64,000 bases of DNA from Escherichia coli (lineage in GTDB: Bacteria > Pseudomonadota > Gammaproteobacteria > Enterobacterales > Enterobacteriaceae). The stretch lies in NCBI RefSeq assembly GCF_017348835.2, contig NZ_CP072312.1; one strand, 5' to 3'. Made by a program: the position numbers. Every line of letters begins with the position of its first letter. Position 1 is the stretch's first letter. Positions 45,001-48,000 of this stretch are shown here, one piece after another.

Positions 45001-48000
45001 TCTTATTTGATGAAAAGAATAATCGTTTTTGGCCGATTGATTTTTCAAACAGTTACGAGCATTATTATTCAATTGACAAAGATAGCAAATTATTTGTAAA
45101 TAAGATGGCAGACAGAGAGTTTTGCTCAATATTAAAAACTTTGCGGGAAAATGCCATAAGCAATATATAGAAAAATGATATTGTTGGCATTGTTCACTGA
45201 TATTCTTGCGGCACATTTCAACTAAAACTCAGGAGAGAAGGAGTGAATGTTGCTCATATATTGAGAGTCCAAGAGGTCGTCCACCTACCAAAACGGCCAA
45301 CAATCTTGGTGTGGGCAGTAGCTTGTGATAACACTTTATTAACATTGAACGCTTTTAGTATATATCTCCTGAGTATTAGCATAAACTTCTAATATAACTT
45401 AATAATTTGAGATCAAATATGTATTTCATCGGTTATCATGGCACGAGTGAGGCGTCAGCCCAGAATATTCTTTCCGTCGGAGTTCAGGAGCGCTTCCTTC
45501 CTCCAACGGGACAAATCGGCAGAGGTTTCTACATTGCGAAGATGAACGGTACGCTACCACAGTGGGGCGCTGAAAACGCAACCGAATTCGCCCGCAGAAA
45601 TCAGCCGTATTTCACTCGCATGGTCAGCTTATTGACCGGCGCGTCAAATAATCCATGGCTTGATAAAGCTGCTCAGCGAACAATTTTAAAAATTTACACT
45701 GTCCGTCCGCTATTGCATTGTAAATGGAACATCATGAACCCCGGCGACTTAGAATTCTTGAAGGCCACACTCTATGACAACGGTGGCCCAGGTCTGGATC
45801 TTAAGCGCGATTGCAAATGGTTGTACCACCAGAGGAACTCCAGTACCTGCGGGTGAAGAGAGATGATGGCATCTTTGAAAAGCCGCAGAACTGGTTTTCG
45901 AAAGATGTAGTGGCACACTGAATTTGGCCACCTGAACAGAGGTGATATGCTCACCTCAGAACAACACAGGTGCTCCAATGAAAAAAAGAAATTTCAGCGC
46001 AGAGTTTAAACGCGAATCCGCTCAACTGGTTGTTGACCAGAACTACACGGTGGCAGATGCCGCCAAAGCTATGGATATCGGCCTTTCCACAATGACAAGA
46101 TGGGTCAAACAACTGCGTGATGAGCGTCAGGGCAAAACACCAAAAGCCTCTCCGATAACACCAGAACAAATCGAAATACGTGAGCTGAGGAAAAAGCTAC
46201 AACGCATTGAAATGGAGAATGAAATATTAAAAAAGGCTACTGTAGATTCAATTGGTCAACGCAACAGTTATGTGAAAACATGGGGTTGCGGAGGTTTTTT
46301 GAATGAGACGAACATTTACAGCAGAGGAAAAAGCCTCTGTTTTTGAACTATGGAAGAACGGAACAGGCTTCAGTGAAATAGCGAATATCCTGGGTTCAAA
46401 ACCCGGAACGATCTTCACTATGTTAAGGGATACTGGCGGCATAAAACCCCATGAGCATAAGCGGGCTGTAGCTCACCTGACACTGTCTGAGCGCGAGGAG
46501 ATACGAGCTGGTTTGTCAGCCAAAATGAGCATTCGTGCGATAGCTACTGCGCTGAATCGCAGTCCTTCGACGATCTCACGTGAAGTTCAGCGTAATCGGG
46601 GCAGACGCTATTACAAAGCTGTTGATGCTAATAACCGAGCCAACAGAATGGCGAAAAGGCCAAAACCGTGCTTACTGGATCAAAATTTACCATTGCGAAA
46701 GCTTGTTCTGGAAAAGCTGGAGATGAAATGGTCTCCAGAGCAAATATCAGGATGGTTAAGGCGAACAAAACCACGTCAAAAAACGCTGCGAATATCACCT
46801 GAGACAATTTATAAAACGCTGTACTTTCGTAGCCGTGAAGCGCTACACCACCTGAATATACAGCATCTGCGACGGTCGCATAGCCTTCGCCATGGCAGGC
46901 GTCATACCCGCAAAGGCGAAAGAGGTACGATTAACATAGTGAACGGAACACCAATTCACGAACGTTCCCGAAATATCGATAACAGACGCTCTCTGGGGCA
47001 TTGGGAGGGCGATTTAGTCTCAGGTACAAAAAACTCTCATATAGCCACACTTGTAGACCGAAAATCACGTTATACGATCATCCTTAGACTCAGGGGCAAA
47101 GATTCTGTCTCAGTAAATCAGGCTCTTACCGACAAATTCCTGAGTTTACCGTCAGAACTCAGAAAATCACTGACATGGGACAGAGGAATGGAACTGGCCA
47201 GACATCTAGAATTTACTGTCAGCACCGGCGTTAAAGTTTACTTCTGCGATCCTCAGAGTCCTTGGCAGCGGGGAACAAATGAGAACACAAATGGGCTAAT
47301 TCGGCAGTACTTTCCTAAAAAGACATGTCTTGCCCAATATACTCAACATGAACTAGATCTGGTTGCTGCTCAGCTAAACAACAGACCGAGAAAGACACTG
47401 AAGTTCAAAACACCGAAAGAGATAATTGAAAGGGGTGTTGCATTGACAGATTGAATCTACAACCGCGCTCTTGATGTCAGACTCCCTGAACAGTTCTCGA
47501 TAATCGGGAAACTCAGAGCGCATTATCCTGTGGTCACACTCTGCCATGTGTTCGGGGTTCATCGCAGCAGCTACAGATACTGGAAAAACCGTCCTGAAAA
47601 ACCAGACGGCAGACAGTATTCGCTCTGCATCACCGGTCCGTATACCTGCCGCATGCAATTGCATCAGCAAAGGAGAATGCTGATTTACACTTCTGAGGAT
47701 AATCCGGATAAGTAACGCTGCAATAATCAGAACAATGAGAATAAAAATAATCAGCTTCATTGTTTATCTGCTCCTGGTAATTAATTATGCTGAATTATTA
47801 CCTTACATATTTCCATATTTCTTTTGGTATCCTGTCATATAACTTTCCGGTGATTAATTCTGCTAACCGGTGGTCTGCTGCTGAATTAAATGATTCACGT
47901 TCACTGGTCGATAAACTGTCTCTGTTTTTATGAATAATTTTTTCCAGCGTATTGACTGATGAACATCGCCGTAATTGATACAGCCATTCCTGTTTTGTTT

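Follow-up and report, generated by a model that had tools for sequence, protein, structure and literature searches.

A complete IS30 element lies directly 3' of the programmed-frameshift heptamer of an IS911 remnant in the 64-kb stretch of Escherichia coli DNA analyzed here (the window). That IS30 lies so close to the slippery heptamer is no coincidence; the site is a recurrent IS30 target. We consider that the structure probably arose by transposition of IS30 into this hot spot, within an IS911 stub that was already dead. The IS30-in-IS911 arrangement itself is ordinary and already known, and RefSeq annotates its parts as an IS30 element, a transposase pseudogene, and a DUF2726 pseudogene. 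The window taken by itself is therefore of little importance (one insertion sequence in the dead stub of another, in a well-sampled plasmid family). The concentration of IS30 at IS3-family frameshift windows, described below and showing a strong preference of IS30 for these sites, is of moderate interest for specialists in mobile DNA.

Plasmid setting

The window belongs to an IncFIB pO103-like plasmid, whose closest relatives are pO103 of enterohemorrhagic E. coli (EHEC) O103:H2 and similar plasmids of 72 to 83 kb. Positions 44000 to 50000 match pF2_18C_FIB (NZ_CP043544.1; IncFIB, MOBF, from a pig in Australia) end to end, with the sole difference being one T in a T-run inside IS30. Leading up to the structure, the gene order is repB, a tyrosine recombinase gene, three hypothetical genes, and then IS911/IS30. 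Beyond it, the minus strand carries the DUF2726 fragment, hha, and genes for a thermonuclease and an ANR regulator, followed by finO, an alpha/beta hydrolase gene, traX, and traI. Plasmids of the pO103 type occur in EHEC O103 and O121. Features of the region are listed in Table 1.

Table 1. Features of the IS911/IS30 region, in window coordinates
Feature	Position	Strand	Basis
IS911-type nt 1-335 (left terminal repeat, orfA codons 1-87, frameshift heptamer)	45906-46240	+	Alignment to annotated IS911
Chimeric orfA' ORF (87 IS911 OrfA codons with HTH_Tnp_1, plus 35 codons from the IS30 left end)	45978-46346	+	Translation, Pfam
A-AAA-AAG slippery heptamer (IS911 -1 programmed frameshift)	46229-46235	+	Sequence
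Target duplication AC, left copy	46239-46240		Single AC in empty site (NZ_CP024480.1)
Complete IS30, 1221 bp	46241-47461	+	Repeats, comparison with K-12 IS30A, RefSeq "IS30-like element IS30 family transposase"
IS30 transposase gene, 383 aa, intact, single ORF	46303-47454	+	Pfam: HTH_38, E=1.7e-23; rve, E=4.1e-14
128-codon chimeric ORF (DUF2726 N terminus, then antisense IS911, then antisense IS30)	47374-47760	-	Translation, homology
Target duplication AC, right copy	47462-47463		Single AC in empty site (NZ_CP024480.1)
IS911-type nt 336-486 (last 13 orfA codons and stop, 5' orfB stub)	47464-47614	+	Alignment
Deletion joint, 3-bp GAC microhomology	47612-47614		GAC common to IS911 (nt 484-486) and the DUF2726 gene
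DUF2726-family 5' fragment, codons 1-49/50, hydrophobic N terminus (transmembrane segment)	47612-47760	-	Homology, Pfam
hha (directly upstream of the truncated DUF2726 gene; context only)	47798-48007	-	Annotation

The IS30 element and its ends

The inserted element has the attributes of IS30: a length of about 1221 bp, 26-bp repeats, a 383-aa DDE ORF with an N-terminal HTH, a 2-bp target duplication, and near identity to the reference IS30 of K-12. Its terminal inverted repeats (46241-46266 and 47436-47461; 26 nt, 23 of 26 positions complementary) start with TGTAG. The element differs from K-12 IS30A at 3 of 1,221 nt, and its transposase differs from K-12 InsI1 by the substitutions R52H and V261L; the allele in the window is defined by A46457, C47083, and C47286. 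With its ORF and both ends intact, this copy looks competent for transposition, as far as can be predicted from its sequence. A search for a second IS30 copy in the 64-kb window and in the plasmid record found none.

In the sister plasmid NZ_CP024480.1, the site is uninterrupted and has one AC (AAAAAAGGCTACCGCGCTC); apart from IS30 and the second AC, identity to the window over the joint is 100%. Because of this empty site, the boundaries of IS30 and the 2-bp duplication are unambiguous. A preliminary description of the window had proposed an IS30 element flanked by an AC duplication; the identification was confirmed, and the duplication withstood the comparison with the empty site, which might have contradicted it.

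The IS911 remnant

We aligned the two flanks of the insertion (45906-46240 and 47464-47614), after removal of IS30 and one AC, with a RefSeq-annotated copy ("IS3-like element IS911 family," 221-1468 of its record). They matched at 479 of 486 positions (98.6%), starting from the left terminal repeat, and the nucleotide identity to IS911 is thus at least 95% over the retained part, which comprises nt 1 to 486 of about 1250. The left terminal repeat of the remnant begins TGTAGTGG; that of canonical IS911 begins TGAAGTGG. From 45906 to 46240, the sequence shows 100% identity to IS911-type copies of E. coli 536 and E2348/69 that have no insertion. Among full-length relatives of the remnant, the best is an IS911-like variant of E. 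coli 536, with 100% identity over the 486 nt and 91.3% identity to IS911 overall, so that the name IS911 is exact only for the retained part.

The retained orfA part has the HTH and the A-AAA-AAG window that opens orfB in the -1 frame. OrfA, which starts at 45978, matches HTH_Tnp_1 (E=6.8e-14), and translation in the -1 frame from the heptamer continues as OrfAB (...LKKGYRALDV...); applied to the copy of E. coli 536, the same -1 reading yields the full 389-aa OrfAB frame. RNA folding of the reconstructed frameshift region gave an unremarkable energy (z = -1.12), and a clear stimulatory structure was not reproduced there. IS30 begins 5 nt after the heptamer (GCTAC), and the duplicated AC begins 3 nt after it (GCT). 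The assignment to IS911 made in the preliminary description accordingly survived an alignment that could have refuted it, as did the placement of IS30 just 3' of the A6G heptamer, where it splits orfA from orfB; the spacing of 4 bp given there was 1 nt off.

The orfB DDE (rve) catalytic domain is absent, with the remnant stopping at nt 486, and the right terminal repeat and 3-bp duplication of IS911 are missing with the deleted right end. We sought further IS911 segments, including the missing right part, in the 64-kb window and found none. Judged by what is left of it, the IS911 copy is a remnant and not a functional member. The insertion of IS30 replaced the end of orfA, whose native product would have 100 aa, with codons from the IS30 left end, and it displaced the sequence downstream of the slippery site by 1,223 bp. 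Because the IS911 copy was already defective, neither the fusion nor the displacement carries functional weight.

Truncation joint and the DUF2726 fragment

The homology to IS911 extends to 47614, and that to the DUF2726 gene already starts at 47612. Since it falls within IS911, at nt 486, the joint is a deletion joint rather than an insertion of an IS end. Truncation of IS911 had been noted earlier near 47598, where it was said to cut a small hydrophobic ORF. The truncation stands, but the alignment to the IS911 copy places its end at 47614 (nt 486) and the joint at 47612-47614, about 15 nt from the position first given. The ORF (47600-47760) indeed proved to be the 5' end of a 196-codon DUF2726 gene, for which a search found an intact homologue of 196 aa (WP_000766807.1) in pM71901, directly downstream of hha.

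In the intact 196-aa protein, the DUF2726 domain (PF10881) spans residues 59 to 170; in the window, where only codons 1 to 49/50 are left, the domain is absent. From its sequence, the fragment classifies as a pseudogene, and on a sister plasmid RefSeq annotates it as a pseudogene "missing C-terminus," beside a transposase pseudogene. The 128-codon ORF that starts in this fragment and runs through antisense IS911 into antisense IS30 is most likely a nonfunctional by-product.

Sister plasmids and the order of events

At least 6 sister plasmids in PLSDB have the IS911(1-486)/DUF2726 joint but lack IS30, and the uninterrupted remnant with this joint is carried by at least 12 plasmids in RefSeq. 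Ten further PLSDB records have an IS3-family insertion of about 1.3 kb in place of IS30. The combination of IS30 with the IS911(486)/DUF2726 joint was found in 1 of 72,556 plasmid records. Since the joint exists without IS30 in sister plasmids, the truncation and the presence of IS30 are separable events; the backbone shared by these plasmids already contained a defective IS911, and IS30 is specific to one lineage. Most likely, then, IS30 arrived after the truncation of IS911. By the same sequence comparison, it was not IS30 that put this IS911 out of action. Only 2 to 3 SNPs in 2.2 kb separate the IS30-bearing plasmid from the empty-site group, so that the comparison is effectively one of two lineages and the direction of the change (gain versus loss) is unrooted. 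In practice, the state of the site can serve as a lineage marker in pO103-like plasmids, where it is empty, has IS629 16 bp away, or holds IS30.

IS30 target preference

We scanned metagenome contigs (n=120) with the core sequence that the two IS30 terminal repeats have in common and retained the ends with at least 20 nt of flank (n=151). An IS3-family transposase gene adjoined 107 of the 151 ends, at its frameshift window. On the orfA side, 60 of 67 junctions lay exactly at OrfAB residue 87, and on the orfB side the junctions lay at residues 89 to 98. The flanking genes encode proteins 27 to 99% identical to IS911-type OrfAB. The orfA-side flanks represent 15 distinct frameshift-window sequences, and the four large clusters were used in both orientations. 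Simple insertions with matching duplications were found in at least four different IS3-family members. Complete IS30 copies with nonmatching flanks made up 12 of 32, and exchange between IS30 copies is therefore common. A scan of genome contigs with the 34-nt IS30 left end gave one match, in Pantoea piersonii.

The half-site profile built from 61 distinct flanks has the preferred bases -13T, -11A, -10A, -8A, -7A, -5G, -4C, -2R, and -1Y, corresponding to an empirical half-site of T-A-A-n-A-A-n-G-C-n-[R-Y]. The IS911 left arm, TTAAAAAAGGCT[AC], fits every position of the profile, and the complete frameshift window, TTAAAAAAGGCT[AC]CGCGCTCTTGA, gives a half-site on both arms. When a weight matrix was trained solely on half-sites that lie elsewhere than in IS3 elements (n=13, hand-filtered, with A-runs excluded), it ranked the AC in the window first of 62,749 positions after removal of IS30. 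IS30 is also found at the homologous AC of IS600, where the window AAAAAAAGCA-AC-AGCGTATTTT is partly palindromic, with symmetry at 7 of 10 arm positions, and K-12 IS30C in ydbA, at TTAATAAAGGTA[CT], shows the same half-site pattern. Measured against the empirical profile, the IS911 site has the properties of a hot-spot (non-IR) target, namely, a part-palindrome of about 24 bp centered on the duplicated dinucleotide and recurrent use in both orientations.

Complete E. coli genomes (n=5,426) document this recurrence. The left junction seen in the window was present in 1,027 of them and the right junction in 862, and a synthetic query for the opposite-orientation junction at the same AC matched 1,184. 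One opposite-orientation case, read directly, had the AC duplication and a 1221-bp IS30. K-12 carries IS30 at the IS911 AC in both orientations. The composites lie next to fec, in the int/xis region of a prophage, and beside betT; they also occur on plasmids of E. coli, Shigella, Enterobacter, and Klebsiella. The spread of a single IS911::IS30 insertion by hitchhiking was considered and rejected in view of the opposite orientation at the same AC, the diverged arm in K-12, and the many IS3-family targets. Placement of IS30 next to the heptamer by chance, for which only the general expectation speaks that insertion sequences often insert with little site preference, has practically no probability left: for each of the two orientations, more than 1,000 genomes have IS30 at this one dinucleotide, IS600 and at least 15 IS3-family window sequences have been hit at the homologous position, and the independently trained matrix ranks the AC first of 62,749.

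A broader reading, which we put forward only tentatively, is that IS30 in nature may insert chiefly into the conserved -1 frameshift window of IS3-family elements (T-TAAAAAAG-GC...). The A-run and GC would form one arm of the palindrome, and IS30 would, with the same modest likelihood, systematically split orfA from orfB in many different IS3-family members and in either orientation. Since the slippery sequence is functionally constrained, the target IS3 elements could not easily mutate it away. The observed concentration of IS30 at these frameshift windows would explain why the IS911 and IS600 copies of E. coli so frequently take the form of insN/insO-type fragments flanking IS30, and it provides a natural hot spot, defined by sequence, for the study of IS30 target recognition. 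No statement of the generality of IS30 at IS3-family frameshift windows was found in the searchable literature; Olasz et al. (1998) may cover it.

Origin of the insertion

In the history that we favor, the order of which is inferred from the sister plasmids, an IS911-type element would first have been located near the hha-DUF2726 genes. Next, a deletion would have fused IS911, at nt 486, with the DUF2726 gene, at codon 50, via the GAC microhomology. In this step IS911 would have lost its right end together with the catalytic region of orfB, and the DUF2726 gene three quarters of its length, leaving IS911 dead. Finally, IS30 would have entered the pF2_18C_FIB lineage from a different replicon of the same cell. 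The transposase may have inserted an intermediate, either a circle or a dimer, that carried an active IR-IR junction into the hot-spot target, with a 2-bp staggered cut giving rise to the AC duplication. Both the copy-out-paste-in pathway with hot-spot insertion and the 2-bp duplication have been described for IS30 (PMC9333248). The site would owe its selection to being a nearly perfect target for IS30, in which the slippery A-run and GC form the left arm.

Two other histories were weighed, and both are less economical than hot-spot insertion. IS30 could have been imported by homologous recombination or gene conversion from a resident IS911::IS30 composite, through arms of 335 bp and 151 bp and with no local transposition. 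About one in five E. coli genomes contains such a composite, and some chromosomal ones (L008) have IS911 arms 100% identical to the plasmid remnant, so that such an import would leave no trace; IS30 copies with hybrid flanks are also frequent, as in the 12 of 32 from metagenome contigs, K-12 IS30D, and a further locus (L007). However, no conversion tract is visible, the IS30 allele of the plasmid lies 2 to 5 nt from that of each composite examined, and RecA-dependent exchange is not expected to be efficient over a right arm as short as 151 bp. The AC is, moreover, independently the best-scoring target in the window, and transposition therefore needs no special pleading. We regard the import of IS30 by recombination as unlikely, though it is the stronger of the two.

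Still less probable is a history in which the truncated remnant originally contained IS30 and the pO103 clade later lost it through precise excision, with the window preserving the older state. A comparison of two lineages does not polarize the change, and the excision may have been promoted by the IS-excision enhancer IEE of EHEC hosts, which is reported to stimulate excision of IS30-family, IS3, and IS1 elements (bioRxiv 10.1101/2023.06.07.543989); pO103-type plasmids reside in EHEC O103/O121. Against this stand a single filled record versus at least 18 empty ones and the requirement that excision be base-perfect on a 2-bp repeat, whereas insertion at a hot spot is a documented, common event (PMC9333248). 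We also rejected the idea that the remnant allele is specific to IS30 composites, which would have pointed to an ancestral IS30 and subsequent excision: the same 486-nt IS911 allele is uninterrupted in the chromosomes of E. coli 536, E2348/69, and many other genomes.

Comparison with known systems

The closest parallel to the window is IS911A::IS30A of K-12 MG1655 (CP4-6 prophage, insN/insI1, 270206-272190), the IS911 of which has been described as incomplete and broken by IS30A (PMC9333248). There, as in the window, IS30 follows IS911 nt 335 in the same orientation with an AC duplication, and the junctions are identical (AAAAAAGGCTAC|TGTAG...CTACA|ACCGCGCTC). The K-12 annotation accordingly lists IS911A (335 nt), IS30A, and then IS911A-1. 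In contrast to the window, the K-12 structure is chromosomal, its IS911A arm differs from the plasmid remnant at 31 of 335 nt, and its right IS911 piece is 429 bp long with another end and no DUF2726 joint. In IS911B::IS30D of K-12 (KpLE2, beside fec), IS30 occupies the same IS911 position as in the window, but in the opposite orientation and next to a slippery run of A5 rather than A6. The other flank of IS30D is an inverted IS600 frameshift window (ATATTAAAAAAAGCAAC), and IS30D is therefore a recombinant of two IS30 insertions.

Plasmid pO103 (NC_013354.1) shares with the window the backbone, the truncated IS911/DUF2726 joint, and a second insertion sequence within the 20-bp stretch downstream of the heptamer. 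In pO103, however, this is IS629 (IS3 family, 1310 bp), which is inserted 16 bp further downstream than IS30 is in the window and has a 3-bp duplication (GTC), and IS30 is absent. The phage lambda LHS (33244-33498) is a natural IS30 hot spot with a nearly palindromic, non-IR target that has been used experimentally by the Olasz/Kiss group (PMC9333248). It lies in an unrelated locus, the kil/cIII region. Its left arm, CAATAAAAGTGGCG[AT], for which the cut position was deduced from the end that a plasmid description gives for the "left part" (33290) rather than taken from a published junction, resembles that of the IS911 window, TATTAAAAAAGGCT[AC], in that the pattern T-AAAA...GGC is common to both.

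Flanks of IS30 copies

In 12 of the 32 complete IS30 copies on the metagenome contigs, the flanking dinucleotides did not match, and the two flanks came from different elements (e.g., one arm from IS911 and the opposite one from IS600 or another IS3 element). These flanks indicate that recombination or rearrangement between IS30 copies is frequent. At the betT locus of E. coli 203740 (Table), a hybrid element carried AC on each side of IS30. The hybrid structure is consistent with an exchange between IS30 copies that occupied homologous frameshift windows in two distinct members of the IS3 family.

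Table. Elements and genes in the window and at related loci
Feature	Location	Strand	Remark
Hybrid: IS911 left part, IS30, IS600-like right part	L007 (E. coli 203740), 2316-4767		Beside betT
IS629, split copy	Window, 13765-14173 and 15479-16387	-	
IS629, inserted copy	Window, 14174-15483	+	Interrupts the minus-strand IS629
IS629 in pO103	L003 (NC_013354.1), 3757-5066		Sits in the same IS911 remnant
Hypothetical protein WP_000273579.1 (145 aa)	Window, 45419-45856	+	A short way to the left of the IS911 end
Full-length IS911-like element	L011 (E. coli 536), 1501-2749		3-bp GTG duplication

T-run ahead of the IS30 transposase

Between the ribosome-binding site and the start of the IS30 transposase, the window has a run of six Ts (46290 to 46295). 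This run consists of five Ts in the public record NZ_CP043544.1 (plasmid pF2_18C_FIB), which is the sole difference between the two sequences across 6 kb. The alignment of the window with the ST131-type chromosomal IS30 copy was gap free at the run; the 1,221-nt comparison with IS30A of K-12 was also gapless (3 mismatches), implying that the run there likewise has no gap relative to the window. A sequencing error at the homopolymer, in either the window or NZ_CP043544.1, may account for the difference.

IS911 relatives and the neighboring gene

The IS911-like element of E. coli 536 was 100% identical to the plasmid remnant (nt 1 to 486), versus only 91.3% identity to IS911 overall. Its two termini have changed in concert (TGAAG to TGTAG; TTCA to TACA), so from its sequence the element looks like either a mosaic or an isoform in its own right.

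The slippery run was A5 rather than A6 in IS911B of K-12 (L015:4441) and in the IS911 copy of the BL21-derived B95 delta A (L004:536). With this 1-nt deletion, orfA would no longer be in frame with its usual 3' end; despite it, the RefSeq annotation of the latter copy is still a programmed frameshift.

Residues 2 to 41 of WP_000273579.1, which include YHGT and RGFYIA motifs, showed weak, subthreshold similarity to the catalytic (ADP-ribosyltransferase) domain of Pseudomonas exotoxin A (PF09009, 21.5 bits against a Pfam cutoff of 25.9, E = 1.9e-4; PDB 6edg, E = 0.007).

IS629 in the window and in pO103

IS629 was present in several copies in the window (the 13765-16387 region, 5748-7057, and 24847-26156), and the plus-strand copy within the minus-strand copy is another nested IS. 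In pO103, only 16 bp separate the IS629 insertion from the IS30 site, which lies upstream of it; the duplication at this IS629 is GTC. pO103-like plasmids can be told apart by three states of one 20-bp stretch: empty, occupied by IS629, or occupied by IS30.
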